Source: a virus. Taken from it: a DNA stretch of 64,000 bases. Numbering within the stretch: position 1 is the first letter of the stretch; the number at the start of each line of letters is the position of its first letter. The translations under genes and the position numbers were made by a program. The DNA is taken from IMG/VR virus record IMGVR_UViG_3300049460_000134, positions 1-64,000 of that record; one strand, written 5' to 3'. Below are positions 9,065 through 61,912 of this stretch, one piece after another. Below the pieces are notes generated by a model that saw nothing but the letters and a program-made list of their open reading frames with translations, made no database searches and had not been told where the DNA came from.

Positions 9065-9083
9065 TCAGTCAATATTGACTTAC
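9064..9083 (+). promoter_or_regulatory. Operator-like motif copy
   Basis: GTCAGT CAAT ATTGAC TTAC after gpJ. Confidence 0.75.
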
Positions 9084-11133: not shown

Positions 11134-11154
11134 ATCAGTAAAGATTGACTGACA
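11134..11154 (+). promoter_or_regulatory. Operator-like motif copy
   Basis: ATCAGT AAAG ATTGAC TGACA before the lysis cassette. Confidence 0.75.
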
Positions 11155-25337: not shown

Positions 25338-26900
25338 ATGAATTCCGCACAGGCATTGGAGCTGATCGAAGCGATCGGCGCCGCATCCAGCCGAACCGAC
25401 AAGCAGGCGATCCTGACAGGTCTCCTGCAAACGGATCTCGGCAAGTTCATCTGCAAGTGGTCCTACGACCCCTTCATCACTTATGGGATCAAGGTGAAGA
25501 AGATGCCTGCCCAGGTGCCGCAGGACTACATCAACATCACCGATGGCGTCGTTCTGCGCGTTCTGAAGGGTCTGTCTACGCGCGAACTCACCGGCAACAA
25601 AGCAGCCGACGAGATCAACACGCTGTTCAAGGTTCTGAACGAGCCGAGCCGGCAGATCTTCTTCAAGATCCTCGCGCGCGACTGGAAGGTTGGGATCTCC
25701 AACTCGACGATTGCAGCCGTGCTGCCGAACTTCCTACCATCCTTCGGCGTCATGCGTGCGCATCCATATGAGGAAAAGCGCGTTCAGGAATTCCCGATGG
25801 TTGGCGAGCCGAAGCTTGATGGCTGGCGCTCATCATTTATCGCGTTTGCAGGGCAGGGCGCGTTCTTCACACGCTCCGGCTCGGCAATGGATGGCCTGGC
25901 TCACATGGCGCCGGCACTGATGAAGGCGCTCGAATATGTTCGCGACATGCCGATCGATCAGACGGCGGCGACAGAGCTCGGCACGACCGTCGAATATCTG
26001 AACCTGCTGCGACAGGTGGCATCGTTCGATGAGAACGGCCATGCCAACGTCATGATCGACTCCGAGTCCGTGACTGGTCTCTTTGCCACGACCAACGTCG
26101 TTCGTTCGAAGACGGAAGATGCAGAGGCCGAAATGCACGCCTTCGATATCGTGCCTTACGCCGAATTCGTCGATCCGAAGCCCTTCAAGATGCCCTACAT
26201 CAAGCGGCGCAAGGTGGTCGAGCTGTTCGTGAAGATCGCACAGCGCTTCGCCAACTTCATCTACTGGACGCCGCGGAAAGCACTGCACAGCCACGAAGAA
26301 GTCTATGCCTACTACGACGAGTGCCAGAACATGACGCTCGCCAGGTATCTCGCTCGCGGCGACGCAGAGCGCGAGGCTGAACTGCTGAAGGTGCTGGTCG
26401 ACAAGCAGACCGGTCTGCCGAAAGGCCTGGAAGGCGCAATGGTCAAGGATCCACGCGGCTTCTACGAAAAGAAGAAATCCTATTCCTGGATGAAGCTCAA
26501 GGCCGAGGAAACGATCGATCTCTTCATCACCGGCTTCTTCAACGGCGAGGAGGGCACGAAATACGAAAACATGATGGGCGGCGCGATCGTCGATCATGAT
26601 GGCGTTGAGGTGCGCGTCGGCGGTGGGTGGTCGGACGAAGAGCGCGAGCAGCTCTGGAAGGATTGGTGCCACGACGCTGATATTGTCGGTGTTGATCCCC
26701 TGGTCGGCTTCAAGAAAGGCTGGTCAACGAGCTTTGAGTCGATCCAGCGCCACGCACATCGTTTCAAGTTCCTCGGCCGGATGCTCGAAATCAAGTTCAA
26801 CGAAGTCACGCCTGACGGCTCGCTGCGCCATCCGCGCAAGATCCGTTTCCGCGATGACAAGGCCGGCGAAGCAATGCGCGAATGGAAGGCAGCAGCATGA
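25338..26900 (+). CDS. ATP-dependent DNA ligase
   Basis: EPKLDGWR, IDSE, FDI, EGAMVK, WMKLK, SLRHP...FRDDK. Confidence 0.93.
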   Translation: MNSAQALELIEAIGAASSRTDKQAILTGLLQTDLGKFICKWSYDPFITYGIKVKKMPAQVPQDYINITDGVVLRVLKGLSTRELTGNKAADEINTLFKVLNEPSRQIFFKILARDWKVGISNSTIAAVLPNFLPSFGVMRAHPYEEKRVQEFPMVGEPKLDGWRSSFIAFAGQGAFFTRSGSAMDGLAHMAPALMKALEYVRDMPIDQTAATELGTTVEYLNLLRQVASFDENGHANVMIDSESVTGLFATTNVVRSKTEDAEAEMHAFDIVPYAEFVDPKPFKMPYIKRRKVVELFVKIAQRFANFIYWTPRKALHSHEEVYAYYDECQNMTLARYLARGDAEREAELLKVLVDKQTGLPKGLEGAMVKDPRGFYEKKKSYSWMKLKAEETIDLFITGFFNGEEGTKYENMMGGAIVDHDGVEVRVGGGWSDEEREQLWKDWCHDADIVGVDPLVGFKKGWSTSFESIQRHAHRFKFLGRMLEIKFNEVTPDGSLRHPRKIRFRDDKAGEAMREWKAAA

Positions 26901-27487
26901 CCGTCTTTTTCACAGGATGCACTCACTTCGGTCACGCCAACATCATCAAGTTGGCGGATCGACCCTTCGAAACAGTCGAGCACATGAATGCGGAGCTCAT
27001 TCGGCGCTGGAACGAGAAGGTCCAGAATGGCGATACCGTCTATCATCTGGGCGACGTTGCCTGGGGCAGCCAGGTCGAGGATTTCTTCCTTGAGCTGAAT
27101 GGCAACATCATCTTCATCGCCGGCAATCATGACGATCCTAACGAGATGGAGAACCTCGAGCGGGACTATGCGGATCACGTCCAGGTTATGAATTACCACG
27201 AGCTGAAGATCGAGAAGCAGCGTCTGGTGCTCTTCCATTATCCGATCGACGACTGGAATGGTCGCTGGCGTGGCTCGATTCATCTGCACTGCCACACGCA
27301 TTCCAAGACGCTGCGCAATCCGCATCTGCCTTACGTGGCGTCTAGCGATCTCGAATTCGGCGAGAAGACGGAGCTCGGTCGCAACTACCCGATCGATATG
27401 ACGTGCAACCGCTTCTGTGTCGGCATGGATTCGACCGACTTTGCGCCGATCTCCTTCGATGAGATCATGCAGGAGGCACGCGCATGA
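26897..27487 (+). CDS. Calcineurin-like metallophosphoesterase
   Basis: THFGH, YHLGD, GNHD, HYP, HCHTH. Confidence 0.88.
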   Translation: MTVFFTGCTHFGHANIIKLADRPFETVEHMNAELIRRWNEKVQNGDTVYHLGDVAWGSQVEDFFLELNGNIIFIAGNHDDPNEMENLERDYADHVQVMNYHELKIEKQRLVLFHYPIDDWNGRWRGSIHLHCHTHSKTLRNPHLPYVASSDLEFGEKTELGRNYPIDMTCNRFCVGMDSTDFAPISFDEIMQEARA

Positions 27488-27825
27488 CAGAGGTCAAGGT
27501 CGCACGCGCGTCAACTCGCAACGTCGAAATCTTCATCGCTGGCGACATGAACGTCGCCAAGCAGATCTGCCGCGAGTTCTGCTTCTCGGTAGGCGCTTGC
27601 GTTACGATCGAGCCGACGGACTACATCTACCGTGGTGGCGAGGAGGCTGGCGTTCGCGTCGGCTTCATCAACTATCCTCGTTTCCCCAAAGAGGAAGAGA
27701 AAATCATGGAGCTCGCCAAGAAGCTCGGCAATGCCTTGATGGATGGCCTGTTTCAGCACTCCTTCTCGATCGTTGGACAGACAGAAACCATCTGGTATTC
27801 CCGTCGTCCGGAAAATCATCGTTAG
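27484..27825 (+). CDS. Hypothetical phage protein
   Basis: YIYRGGEEAG...INYPRFP; ATGA coupling. Confidence 0.7.
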   Translation: MTEVKVARASTRNVEIFIAGDMNVAKQICREFCFSVGACVTIEPTDYIYRGGEEAGVRVGFINYPRFPKEEEKIMELAKKLGNALMDGLFQHSFSIVGQTETIWYSRRPENHR

Positions 27826-27866
27826 CCGCAGTTAATTTCGAAAAGCCTCTGATTTCTCGCTATTAT

Positions 27867-27902
27867 CTAAGCAGCGACGAAGATCAGTTCCTGGTTTTTC
27901 AT
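27867..27902 (-). CDS. Candidate 11-aa mini-peptide MKNQELIFVAA
   Basis: AAGGAG 6 nt before ATG; ATG AAA AAC CAG GAA CTG ATC TTC GTC GCT GCT TAG; downstream of repC. Confidence 0.45.
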   Translation of the reverse strand: MKNQELIFVAA

Positions 27903-27960
27903 TGCGGTCTCCTTGTTACCTTGCCTCAGGCTCACACCTGGGGCTTTTTTTTTTTTTTTT
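27873..27960 (+). ncRNA. Candidate small antisense RNA
   Basis: -10-like CGCTATTAT at 27858-27866, about 90 nt with no ORF, ends in a terminator; complementary to the RBS and ATG of the mini-ORF. Confidence 0.4.
27923..27960 (+). terminator. Intrinsic terminator
   Basis: GCCTCAGG-ctcaca-CCTGGGGC stem followed by T16. Confidence 0.8.
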
Positions 27961-29068
27961 AGTGGTGTCGTCGCCGCTTCATCGCCAGGATCTCTTGCTC
28001 GAGGTCCATTTCACCGCACGCCACCTTCCGCGCGGTCGCTCGATAGAAGCCGCCAAAGTTCTTGATGGTCTGCCGGCCTCGCTGATCTGCCGTGTATTGC
28101 TGGAGCACCATGAAGAAGACCACCGCCGCGCGTTGTCGCCCTAATTCGTCGCAGGCTTCCTCCCAGGCGCTCCGGTGCGTCCCAAACACGCCGCGGAGCT
28201 CGGCCGCCGCTTTAACCAGGTCGCCAATGTCTGTCACGCGACCGCAATACTCGATCGCATCAGGGCAGGCGGCCATGATATCGCCCAGCCGGATCGGCTT
28301 GCTCCCCAATCCTTCCGTGCCTTTTGAACAAGGCTGCTCAAAGTTCTCGTTGTTGTTCTTATTGTGACGGCAATTATTGCCGGCATTGGCGGTATTAAAT
28401 AGTTCCTCTGCTTCTTTCGTGAGAGCGCGCCAATCGTTCAGAATGGGGCCAGGAGAGCGTTTCTTCGATCTGCGCGGCGTGTGCTCGGCCAAAGCCTGAT
28501 AACGCTGCTCAAGAGCGCCCGTGTCGATATCGGGGTGATGCTCATGCAAAGCCCTGATGACTTCCATCACTGAGCGCCGAGAGACCGTGACGGCGTCAAA
28601 CTCCTGGCTCCAAATGATCTCCTGCTCGCGCATCCGATCGGCGATGGCCTGGAACTCGTCCTGGCGATCGAGAAGAGGGGAAAGGTCGAAGCCGTAGGCG
28701 TCGATGATCTGCTGCGTGCGGAAGTCTCGCTCGGCATATCTTTTGCCATTCGGAGAGTTTTTCGAGAGCACCAGGCCGGCGCTGATAAGATTGCGCAAGG
28801 CGTTGCGGATCTGCCGCTCGGAATAACCGGTCGCCTGGCACAGCGCATCATTGGACGGCCAGACAAGGATTCTTCCCTTGAGTGGCTCTTTGAAGAAGCT
28901 AATCAACGTCCCGAGGACGGCTATACTTGCCCTATCCAGTTGAAGCGCGCGGTCGGCGAGCTTTTTGACTTGGTAGAGTTTGCGCTTGTCGGCGTCGAAA
29001 TGCTGATTAATCAGTAAGTGCTGACTCGCGGAGAGCTTGCGCCACCCGCTATTGTGTTGAGTCTCCAT
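27959..29068 (-). CDS. repC: Plasmid replication initiator RepC (repABC-type)
   Basis: VWPSN...L...GLV...SPNGKRYA...YGFDLSPLL signature; C-terminal IKNFGGFYR. Confidence 0.9.
   Translation of the reverse strand: METQHNSGWRKLSASQHLLINQHFDADKRKLYQVKKLADRALQLDRASIAVLGTLISFFKEPLKGRILVWPSNDALCQATGYSERQIRNALRNLISAGLVLSKNSPNGKRYAERDFRTQQIIDAYGFDLSPLLDRQDEFQAIADRMREQEIIWSQEFDAVTVSRRSVMEVIRALHEHHPDIDTGALEQRYQALAEHTPRRSKKRSPGPILNDWRALTKEAEELFNTANAGNNCRHNKNNNENFEQPCSKGTEGLGSKPIRLGDIMAACPDAIEYCGRVTDIGDLVKAAAELRGVFGTHRSAWEEACDELGRQRAAVVFFMVLQQYTADQRGRQTIKNFGGFYRATARKVACGEMDLEQEILAMKRRRHH
28335..28415. other. Putative replication origin (AT-rich patch inside repC)
   Basis: AT-rich tract in mid-repC; repABC origins lie within repC. 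Confidence 0.4.
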
Positions 29069-29121: not shown

Positions 29122-29231
29122 TTGACAGCGATTCGGTTTCATGGGAAAACACACTTGCTAAGGGTGTTGGGTTTCCCAATCCACGATTTCAGGGCTTCGG
29201 AAGTTACCAGCTTCCGGAGCCCTTTCGTTTA
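29122..29231 (+). ncRNA. Counter-transcribed RNA (ctRNA/incA-like) with promoter and terminator, antisense to the repC leader
   Basis: TTGACA at 29122 followed by GATTC as in repABC ctRNA promoters; 13-bp stem 29191-29223 plus T-rich tail. Confidence 0.75.
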
Positions 29232-29426
29232 TGCCGCGTTAAAATCCCTCATTTTCAAAGCCTCTTGCAGTGCAACGGAGATCGCCTCAGACTTCGTGCC
29301 GATCTTGTTCTCGGCCTGGAAGTCGCTCAGCTTGGCGTTCACGTCGGCCGGCAGCCATATGGTCGCCTGGACGAGACCAGCCTGTTTTCGACGGATACGA
29401 TGTTCAGCCATTCTAGCTGCACTCAT
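29229..29426 (-). CDS. Ribbon-helix-helix (CopG-like) DNA-binding protein upstream of repC
   Basis: 65 aa; QATIWLP beta ribbon...TKSEAISVALQEAL; AAGGAG RBS. Confidence 0.65.
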   Translation of the reverse strand: MSAARMAEHRIRRKQAGLVQATIWLPADVNAKLSDFQAENKIGTKSEAISVALQEALKMRDFNAA

Positions 29427-59575: not shown

Positions 59576-61912
59576 ATGGAAGTTTCGCAGCTTGCGCAGC
59601 TCGACACACACGCCGTCATCGGCGGTGAAGATCCTGAAGCGTTCGGCATGGCTGATACTCCAGAATTCTATCAGATGCTCTCAGCCAGCATCTATCGCGA
59701 CAAGATCCGCGCAGTCGTGCGCGAGACGATCTGCAATGGCTGGGACGCGCATATCATGGGCGGCTGCACCGACAAGGCAGTGCAAGTTACACTCACGGAC
59801 GAGGAGCTTGTCATCAAGGACTTCGGTCCCGGCATTCCGCATGAGAAGATGCGGCCGATCTATTGCATCTACGGCGTTTCGACGAAGGTGAAGGATGAGA
59901 GCCAGACCGGCGGTTTCGGTCTCGGATCCAAGTCGCCATTCGCCGTCACCGATCACTTCTCCGTCGTCTCGTGCTTTGCAGGCACACGCTCTGTCTATGC
60001 CATCTCTCGCGGTGGCAAAGCTACAAGCGGCAAGCCTGACATGCGCCGCATGGTCGCCGTGCCGACAACCGAAAGCGGCGTCACTGTCACGGTCCCGATC
60101 AAAAAGGAAGAGCGCGAGAGCTTTGCCAAGCACATTCGCGCCGTTGCAAAGCAGGGCGGCATGCTGGTGACGCTGAACGGCGAACTTCTGGAGCGCTTCG
60201 ATTACGAGGAGGCGCGCAAGACTGAGTTCTGCGTCGTCGCGCCTCACTGGATGCACGAAAGCCGCATCTATACGCTCTACGGCACCGTCCTCTATCCGGT
60301 GATGACGACCGACCCTGATATCTCCAAGCTGACACGCGATATCGAAGGCCTGATCGGCTACGGCTCGACGCTGGTTATCGTTGCCCCGCCGAATTCAGTC
60401 GAAGTCACGCCGTCGCGCGAGTCCCTCTCTTTTACGGATGGAACCACCGACACCATCAAGCGGCTGCTCGACAAGGCATGCACGCGCATCAGCAAGGCAA
60501 TTCCGGCAGCTACTAAGCTCGCTGTCGATGCACGCGTTGCAAAGAACGGCCGCCTAGCGCTCGCGAGCAAGATCCACGCGATCAGAGAGGTGCCTGAGAA
60601 GGTTCTCTCCAGTGCGCTCGCGATCGCCGAGCACGCCGTCCGCTCGAATCCTGATAACCATATCCAGTATGATCGACAGCGGCGCCTATGCCTTCAGGCA
60701 GCGCAGCGACTGTTCAAAGATGATCGCCGCACCTTCCGCCGTGCGCTGAAGCGTGGTTACAACGCTGGCGAGGACAGCTTCAAGGCGTCGAGCAAGCCGC
60801 TCATCCGCATTGCCTCGAAGATGGGCATGCTGAAGGATGCGCACCTCTTCAACATCTACGCCTATCGCTACCAGACGATCGGCTCCAAGACCAATCCGCT
60901 GAAGGAGCACGACACCGGGGTCGTTAGGCCTGTCCTTTGCGTGGCGCGCAATCTGCGCGATCTGCGACCGACGATGAGCGGTGCAAGCAGCGGTTTTCCG
61001 CCGGACAAGGATAGCTTCATCGCCGGCCTGGTCATGCGCCAGTGGACTGCGGAGCGCCTGAAGCAGCTTCGCGCGCTCGCCGAGCACTACAAGCTGAAGC
61101 TGGTCATCTTCGATTACGAAGCAGCGAAGAAGCCGAAGAAAGCACCGGTCAAGCGCGAAAAGATCGTCGACAAGTATTTCGCCCTTGGTGATTTCAGGGG
61201 AACGACTTGCGAAACGGCAAACCTCGAAAATCCGAAATACTTCCTGATGAGCTTTGCGCGCGAAGGCATGCGTTCGCCCTTTCAGGATGAAGGCCATCAA
61301 TACCACCACCTTCTTGCGAAGCGCTATCCGGAGACGGCTGTCATTTCGTCCAAGACAGACGCTGAGAAGCTGATGAAGCGCGGCGCAGTCAATCTGACCG
61401 GTGTCATTGCCAAGCGCATTGCGGAGCTCGCTGGGGTCCGTGAGGTCCAATACGCTTACGCGATCCGCGAAGGCCTGATGTGCAACGGCAATTATCACCA
61501 CTACCCATCAGACCTGGCCATTTCGTTCGCCAAGCTCGACATGCGGATTGCAAAGCGCCTGTTCCCCGACAAGGCGACGCCTGGCGCTCTCGCTGAAGAA
61601 GGCTTGCTTCTGAACGACGTGATGAACTCGCTGCGGCTCGATTATCAGGACCGCAACTGCGGCGGCAATGAAGCCAAGCTCAAGATCTGGACGTCTGCGA
61701 GAGAGACCTACAAGGCCATGACCACGTCATATGCCGACCAGAAATTCAGTTACTTGAGCGTCCTGGCAGGCATCAGAGTTACCGGCGGCATCAAACGCAA
61801 GATCGATGATCTCCACGACATCATCGTCTTTTTGCAGGACCGCGAGAGTAAGTCAAAATTGACTGAATCCCTTTTGAACCCAATTGCTAACGCCCAGAAG
61901 GAGGCAGCATGA
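59576..61912 (+). CDS. rIIA-like protein (GHKL ATPase N-terminus)
   Basis: RETICNGWDAH, DFGPGI, GGFGLGSKSPF, PSRESLS. Confidence 0.85.
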   Translation: MEVSQLAQLDTHAVIGGEDPEAFGMADTPEFYQMLSASIYRDKIRAVVRETICNGWDAHIMGGCTDKAVQVTLTDEELVIKDFGPGIPHEKMRPIYCIYGVSTKVKDESQTGGFGLGSKSPFAVTDHFSVVSCFAGTRSVYAISRGGKATSGKPDMRRMVAVPTTESGVTVTVPIKKEERESFAKHIRAVAKQGGMLVTLNGELLERFDYEEARKTEFCVVAPHWMHESRIYTLYGTVLYPVMTTDPDISKLTRDIEGLIGYGSTLVIVAPPNSVEVTPSRESLSFTDGTTDTIKRLLDKACTRISKAIPAATKLAVDARVAKNGRLALASKIHAIREVPEKVLSSALAIAEHAVRSNPDNHIQYDRQRRLCLQAAQRLFKDDRRTFRRALKRGYNAGEDSFKASSKPLIRIASKMGMLKDAHLFNIYAYRYQTIGSKTNPLKEHDTGVVRPVLCVARNLRDLRPTMSGASSGFPPDKDSFIAGLVMRQWTAERLKQLRALAEHYKLKLVIFDYEAAKKPKKAPVKREKIVDKYFALGDFRGTTCETANLENPKYFLMSFAREGMRSPFQDEGHQYHHLLAKRYPETAVISSKTDAEKLMKRGAVNLTGVIAKRIAELAGVREVQYAYAIREGLMCNGNYHHYPSDLAISFAKLDMRIAKRLFPDKATPGALAEEGLLLNDVMNSLRLDYQDRNCGGNEAKLKIWTSARETYKAMTTSYADQKFSYLSVLAGIRVTGGIKRKIDDLHDIIVFLQDRESKSKLTESLLNPIANAQKEAA
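61848..61866 (+). promoter_or_regulatory. Intragenic operator-like motif upstream of rIIB
   Basis: GTAAGT CAAA ATTGAC TGA within the 3' end of rIIA. Confidence 0.65.

Follow-up and report, generated by a model that had tools for sequence, protein, structure and literature searches.

A predicted small RNA gene with an exposed anti-Shine-Dalgarno linker at the 3' end of repC in Rhizobiaceae phage-plasmids

The locus between the ligase operon and repC

The DNA analysed here, referred to below as the window, comprises the initial 64 kb of an IMG/VR virus record that is 115,555 bp long and has direct terminal repeats. All of the features noted lie in a 133-nt spacer between a plus-strand operon and a convergent repC gene on the minus strand. 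The operon begins with an ATP-dependent ligase gene (25338-26900), continues with a phosphoesterase gene (26882-27487) and ends with a gene of unknown function that matches phrog_4848 (27484-27825; 5.7e-43). The product of repC (27959-29068, minus strand) is a plasmid-type replication initiator with matches to the Pfam families RP-C (PF03428, 1.7e-37) and RP-C_C (PF11800, 7.6e-18) and to phrog_22671.

The plus strand of the spacer opens with a promoter-like block (27838-27866) made up of a -35-like TCGAAA, 17-nt spacing and TATTAT, which together match the sigma-70 consensus at 9 of 12 positions. Two parts of this block are conserved, the near-invariant CGAAAAGCC that holds the -35-like word (27839-27847) and the -10-like CTATTAT (27860-27866). 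Covariance modelling and folding predict a small RNA of approximately 80-88 nt at 27870-27955, composed of a 5' stem-loop (SL1, 27871-27905) with the CU-rich word UUCC in its loop (27888-27891), a single-stranded linker with the anti-Shine-Dalgarno (anti-SD) motif UCUCCUU (27908-27914) and an intrinsic terminator (27923-27960). The terminator consists of an 8-bp G+C-rich hairpin (27923-27944) followed by a run of 16 T residues (27945-27960) that overlaps the repC stop codon (27959-27961), and it also closes the ligase-phosphoesterase-phrog_4848 operon. On the minus strand, the complement of the linker and of the 3' half of SL1 reads as AAGGAG (27914-27909), six nucleotides, ATG (27902-27900) and 11 codons, MKNQELIFVAA, ending in TAG (27869-27867). 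The initial annotation had described this 36-nt open reading frame (ORF, 27902-27867) with its ribosome-binding site, a -10-like CGCTATTAT (27858-27866) and the terminator, and direct reading of the sequence confirmed all three.

A further terminator-capped unit lies at the other end of repC, on the plus strand at 29130-29230 between repC and a 65-aa ribbon-helix-helix (RHH) gene (29229-29426, minus strand). Its terminator (29191-29223) is a 15-bp hairpin followed by TTTCGTTTAT, present on the plus strand only, and an equivalent hairpin with a U-rich tail occurs in phage RHEph10. This unit, referred to below as ctRNA-like, has no Rfam match.

Repeated motifs were also considered. The sequence TTTCGAAA was rejected as a repeated operator as it is not repeated, and another TTCGAAAAGCC, at 105701, falls within coding sequence and was set aside as a chance occurrence. 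A separate near-palindromic motif of approximately 20 bp, (G)TCAGTAAnnATTGACTGAC (perfect form TCAGTCAAT followed by ATTGACTGA), is present in at least 35 copies across the whole record. Those in the window lie at 11144, 15366, 30723, 46448, 51644, 58151 and 59533 on the plus strand and at 9073, 30447, 43863 and 55870 on the minus strand, with more beyond the window. Most copies precede a candidate start codon by no more than about 60 nt, and many come directly after a TATT word. In relatives the same genes are preceded by a TATTGATTGATCG version. The motif has the appearance of a promoter or operator specific to the phage.

Homologues and distribution

RHEph10 and pLM21S1 have been described as prophages of plasmid-like form that use a RepC replicon (PMC4447125, PMC7969092). 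The gene order ligase, variable small genes, spacer, convergent repC, RHH, HTH and cobT recurs in several replicons, among them the Rhizobium phages RHEph10, RHph_Y2_11 and RHph_N1_10 and the 115.6-kb circular plasmid p5 of Pararhizobium qamdonense. The spacer can be aligned across these relatives although their RepC proteins are only 41-57% identical to that of the window. The elements that they share are, in order, CGAAAAGCC, a variable spacer of 12-13 nt, CTATT(C/A)T, the hairpin, CATTG, TCTCCTT and the terminator.

A covariance model was built from five sequences, and further IMG/VR contigs were drawn by a pattern scan and by a RepC-alignment scan and then searched with the model. In all, 12 distinct members with E-values from 2e-26 to 0.012 were found among RHEph10-like Rhizobium phages, P. 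qamdonense p5 and IMG/VR contigs; the window itself is matched by covariance model R1 at 27834-27953 with 81.8 bits (E 3e-14). Each genome has a single copy of the unit, in every case encoded on the opposite strand to repC and close to the repC 3' end. Beyond these members, a pattern scan of 185,000 species-representative genomes gave 101 matches, all of which were dropped by nhmmer filtering, as were the three matches in JGI metagenome contigs. BLAST of plasmids found P. qamdonense p5 as the sole plasmid. No Rfam family was matched at its gathering score or at E-values up to 10 other than by chance-level matches; the best of these was suhB/MmgR (RF00519; E 4.3, with 15 bits where its threshold is 41), and AbcR (RF02345) and other alpha-r families were not listed. 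These searches suggest that the unit belongs to an undescribed, narrowly distributed family of RHEph10/pLM21S1-type Rhizobiaceae phage-plasmids.

Other sequences occupy the same position in some related phage-plasmids. Phages X66, B1VFA and V1VFA-S are without the unit and have a protein gene after repC instead. This gene follows repC in the same orientation and encodes a small protein, apparently from its own promoter (L006:3705-3995, L007:3694-3873 and L008:3694-3873, respectively), and in B1VFA and V1VFA-S the product is 59 aa long with a hydrophobic segment. In four contigs whose RepC is 37-45% identical, a different terminator-capped unit lies at the same position on the strand opposite repC (L299:2574-2790, L302:2586-2800, L319:2637-2850 and L313:2505-2720). 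It contains AATCCCTGACGACTTGGGTnAAAGTCG, then a linker of the CUCUCUC type and, directly against the repC stop codon, a terminator, and may represent an analogous small RNA family. Two more distant RepC phage-plasmid contigs, L328 and L329, have a tRNA-gene-like sequence (GCTCAGTTGGTAGAGC ... GGTTCGAGTCC), recognised by eye only, directly after repC in place of the small RNA.

Evidence for a plus-strand RNA gene

The locus stands out from chance because its plus-strand unit is conserved in 12 related replicons. The members share a three-part fold of 5' stem-loop, unpaired linker and terminator hairpin with U-tail. In a 12-sequence alignment 91.7% of cells are paired and 13 of the 20 base pairs show compensatory changes on both sides, values in which the pairing is somewhat inflated because the alignment was fitted to the model, although an earlier count on eight sequences agreed. 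The covariation score of 0.439 compares with 0.217+-0.022 in shuffled alignments, none of 500 shuffles reaching the observed value, and pairing falls to 27-51% when the 3' partners are slid by one to three columns. Both helices contribute in this alignment, SL1 being 88.5% paired with double-sided changes in seven of its 11 pairs and the terminator helix 95.4% paired with double-sided changes in six of nine. G-U pairs, which become C-A mismatches on the other strand, occur in both helices and tie the structure to the plus strand. The terminator recurs in the relatives when they are put through the same terminator scan.

In its degree of conservation the region equals or exceeds the protein genes on either side. 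The unit is 78-81% identical when the RHEph10 group is compared with P. qamdonense p5/L045, as against approximately 60% for repC and 76-79% for the ligase gene. The unit is therefore subject to selection and moves together with the phage backbone rather than with the replicon. The contrast, seen across L002, L003, L005 and L045, between approximately 60% DNA identity for repC (27959-29068 in the window) and 76-81% for the ligase gene and the small RNA suggests that the repC module has been exchanged beside the small RNA gene with a breakpoint at the shared terminator.

Upstream of the transcribed part, the promoter-like words stand at fixed spacing in all type-A members while the intervening 12-13 nt are free to vary. 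This two-block pattern persists with three different upstream neighbours, namely the phrog_4848 gene, an overlapping small ORF and the stop codon of the ligase gene. A scan with an E. coli-type sigma-70 consensus called a promoter in the window but in none of the relatives, and the -35 word is poor. We infer a promoter function for 27838-27866 from the conserved pattern; alternatively, the RNA might be processed from the 3' UTR of the upstream operon. The initial annotation had proposed a discrete plus-strand RNA of roughly 90 nt, and both the conservation in 12 members and the covariation argue for such an RNA. On balance, then, the plus-strand unit is predicted to be a real and conserved small RNA gene.

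The anti-Shine-Dalgarno linker and target searches

The linker word UCUCCUU is identical in the 10 members that score at least 82 bits. It is UCUCCUG in L304 and is replaced by other CU-rich words in L318 and L295. In the eight members folded, UCUCCUU(U) has a mean unpaired probability of 0.74-0.97, and a UYCC-type word is present in the 5' hairpin loop of all eight members read by eye. UCUCCUU(U) corresponds to the core of the 16S rRNA 3' tail, CCUCCUUUC. The flanks of the linker vary among members (UUUCCAACU, UUUGUAACUU and UUGUUACCUU). In four complete genomes the natural linker pairs better with the start regions of its own phage than do flank-shuffled linkers (mean energy z -1.4 to -3.1), with 17-43 sites at or below -14 kcal/mol as against 8-27 for the shuffled versions. 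This gain speaks for a trans-acting anti-SD function, but would be equally expected if the minus strand merely carried an optimal Shine-Dalgarno (SD) sequence. A point against such a function is offered by L318 and the related units of L299, L302, L313 and L319, in which CUCUCUC takes the place of CUCCU and would make a poor anti-SD.

The suggestion, made as a second possibility in the initial annotation, that the RNA acts in trans on mRNAs with a similar leader fits the exposed and invariant anti-SD word, but scans of phage genes yielded no target. K-mer and duplex scans of the whole genome of the window gave nothing above noise. When all candidate start sites in four genomes were ranked by an orthology-based combined score, the best mean z among conserved ORFs with matches in at least two relatives was -1.7, and 8-mers shared by orthologous 5' regions were likewise no better than noise. 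An apparent match to cobT was rejected because the similarity is in the same sense and falls within coding sequence. A weak lead may be seen at 59576, where a GHKL-ATPase gene begins: the window has a seed match of 10 nt there and relatives have GAAAGGAAGAC, with a z of only -0.5 to -2.4. Complementarity of the RHH/repC leader to the small RNA is moderately good in the window only (the fraction of background as good being 0.12) and is no better than background in the other three of four genomes, RHEph10, P. qamdonense p5 and N1_10.

The minus-strand mini-ORF

The initial annotation gave most weight to the minus strand, where MKNQELIFVAA was proposed to be a free, ssrA-like degron that competes for ClpXP under antisense control. 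The SD sequence, spacing and ATG are good and the peptide of the window does end in VAA. AAGGAG-N4-8-ATG sites are in excess in the window, with 10 observed against approximately 2.4 expected in 128 kb of two-strand sequence; nine of them open long ORFs or real genes, and the mini-ORF is the only one to open an ORF of 30 aa or fewer. The SD-ATG mini-ORF by itself is not above chance.

Comparison with relatives does not bear out a peptide. The homologous minus-strand ORFs encode MTK (RHEph10 and Y2_11), MTNGKTSL, MTKRRERRCNYR, MTKRRGTSLCL, MTNGETSLCL, MNGNATSL and a 26-mer (P. qamdonense), thus ranging from three to 26 codons in differing reading frames, and the Ala-Ala end is found in the copy of the window only. 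Indels between close relatives include single-base changes and are not multiples of three. In the three most divergent members the start codon is lost and the CU-rich linker is kept: L304 retains AGGAGA with no start codon within 10 nt, while L318 and L295 have no start codon whatsoever. The initial annotation had named conservation of the ribosome-binding site, the ORF and the Ala-Ala end as a check, and the degron proposal fails it. AAGGAGA-N4-6-ATG is kept in nine of the 12 members. With neither a conserved ORF nor a conserved C-terminus, and with the start codon absent from three of 12 members, an ssrA-like degron or other functional small protein was rejected; the ClpXP proposal in particular we consider highly improbable. 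A type I toxin-antitoxin system was also rejected, the minus-strand peptides being not hydrophobic, not conserved and shorter than the 19 aa or so expected of such toxins. In a separate observation, the RHH protein encoded upstream of repC (29229-29426, minus strand) ends in MRDFNAA and its P. qamdonense homologue in QQTAS, so that Ala-Ala is not conserved there either.

The retention of AAGGAGA-N4-6-ATG in nine members, though the spacer sequence varies, can be viewed in the light of the plus-strand structure. The CAUUG letters of the small RNA are largely fixed by pairing with its conserved 5' end, ACAG or GCAG, and the window has a compensatory G-C pair where the other members have A-U. On the minus strand the AUG is mostly base-paired (unpaired probability 0.0-0.5) inside the complement of the 5' hairpin. 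The constraint on CAUUG from hairpin pairing, taken with the lack of peptide conservation, suggests that the SD-ATG is the mirror image of the anti-SD linker and a hairpin arm and that the 11-residue peptide is probably an accident of the anti-SD motif. Given the retention in nine of 12 members, there may nevertheless be a functional minus-strand start site.

Interpretation and alternative explanations

The explanation that we lean towards is that 27838-27960 on the plus strand is a small RNA gene with its own transcription start and a Rho-independent terminator, whose product of approximately 80-88 nt acts in trans as an anti-SD riboregulator. The exposed UCUCCUU would pair with ribosome-binding sites of the AAGGAGA type, assisted by the UYCC word in the 5' hairpin loop, and the pairing would block translation initiation on phage or host mRNAs. 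The minus-strand SD-ATG and 11-aa ORF would then be the mere complement of the seed and of the 3' arm of the hairpin. Trans-acting translational repression is taken as the most likely mode since an exposed UCUCCUU together with a UYCC loop word is the layout of the AbcR1/2 anti-SD small RNAs.

Transcripts that read through repC would carry a perfect complement of the small RNA, and a cis effect on the 3' end of the repC mRNA is conceivable, though in our view secondary. As a full alternative, the read-through repC mRNA would carry an SD-AUG mini-cistron in its 3' UTR, and pairing with the small RNA would block ribosome loading or trigger cleavage by RNase III and so tune repC mRNA stability and plasmid-prophage copy number. 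Here the complementarity is perfect by construction, 11 of 12 members have the small RNA terminator directly against the stop codon of repC, and the terminator hairpin has no U-run on the repC strand, which would permit read-through. The nine-of-12 retention of the SD-ATG and the association of nine of the 10 such sites in the window with real gene starts also speak for a minus-strand start. This explanation is nonetheless unlikely in our view. L304, L318 and L295 lack the start codon, the AUG lies inside a minus-strand hairpin, and in L318 the small RNA is parted from repC by another ORF and some 600 nt. Across lineages the conservation of the small RNA greatly exceeds that of repC, which is not the pattern of replicon-specific copy-control RNAs; an invariant seed would be unneeded by an RNA that acts purely in cis; and the classical position upstream of repC is already taken by the ctRNA-like unit. 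Less probable still is that there is no regulatory RNA, the hairpin and T-run serving as a ligase operon terminator that shields repC and the upstream block being a protein-binding or other DNA site. In favour of this, the plus-strand operon does finish at the terminator and the promoter match is weak. Such an arrangement would leave unexplained the covarying 5' stem-loop with its double-sided changes, the conserved unpaired UCUCCUU and the two-block upstream pattern with its fixed spacer, all of which are kept with phrog_4848, a small ORF or the ligase gene as upstream neighbour.

A wider and rather unlikely reading may also be put forward. RepC-type phage-plasmids might keep a dedicated small RNA slot at the repC 3' end that couples plasmid-prophage maintenance to translation. 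The occupant could be paired with a decoy ribosome-binding site as a clamp in the repC 3' UTR, providing a second, 3'-end control of RepC beside the ctRNA, or could mimic the 16S tail and damp lytic genes with strong SD sequences during carriage; the CU-rich RNAs of L299, L302, L313 and L319 would be functional analogues. Rhizobial phage-plasmids such as RHEph10, pLM21S1 and P. qamdonense p5 are poorly studied, and the literature found on their regulatory RNAs describes only the ctRNA of RepC replicons. A conserved small RNA that is borne on the backbone and has an anti-SD seed would offer an easily mutated handle on carriage versus lytic growth or on host translation. The locus also illustrates that a perfect SD-ATG mini-ORF can mirror an anti-SD small RNA and need not be a gene.

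Comparison with known RNAs

In repABC and repC replicons the ctRNA gene precedes repC, and its product is antisense to the leader and SD sequence of repC (PMC10194956, PMC3155836). In common with the ctRNA (Rfam ctRNA_p42d), the RNA described here lies on the strand opposite repC, has an intrinsic terminator and belongs to a RepC replicon. The ctRNA is, however, a replicon-specific incompatibility determinant, whereas the present RNA lies downstream of the repC stop codon and is more conserved than repC. Identity with the ctRNA was rejected on account of this position, of the absence of an Rfam ctRNA match at E-values up to 10 and of leader complementarity that does not exceed background in RHEph10, P. 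qamdonense p5 and N1_10. The predicted RNA is thus a second, distinct RNA at the other end of repC from the ctRNA-like unit.

Small antisense RNAs of phages provide further points of comparison. The OOP RNA of phage lambda, approximately 77 nt long, has its own promoter and terminator, converges on a regulatory or replication-region gene and ends at the 3' end of that gene; it acts on cII. Its convergent placement at a gene 3' end is similar and makes it a model for a cis-acting RNA at this locus, but OOP overlaps the cII coding region whereas the RNA here overlaps only the repC stop codon, and there is no homology between the two. The sar RNA of P22 and the c4 RNAs of P1 and P7 are phage immunity antisense RNAs with adjoining targets, ant and icd. 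They are likewise small RNAs of a phage or phage-plasmid that block a ribosome-binding site, and differ in that an adjoining target was found for them and none was found here.

The closest resemblance is to AbcR1/2 (alpha-r15), NfeR1 (alpha-r14) and MmgR (alpha-r8). These RNAs are of comparable size, about 80-110 nt, with an intrinsic terminator that has a long U tail and a setting in the Rhizobiaceae, and they too expose CU-rich anti-SD words, one in the loop of a hairpin and another in an unpaired linker. They have their own promoter, as is predicted here from the two conserved upstream blocks. They differ in their seeds, CUCCCA or CCUCCUCCC as against UCUCCUU here, and in being chromosomal where the present RNA is borne on a phage-plasmid and has no Rfam match. 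It is therefore most likely as a functional class, and not as a homology family, that the predicted small RNA would work like the alphaproteobacterial anti-SD small RNAs.
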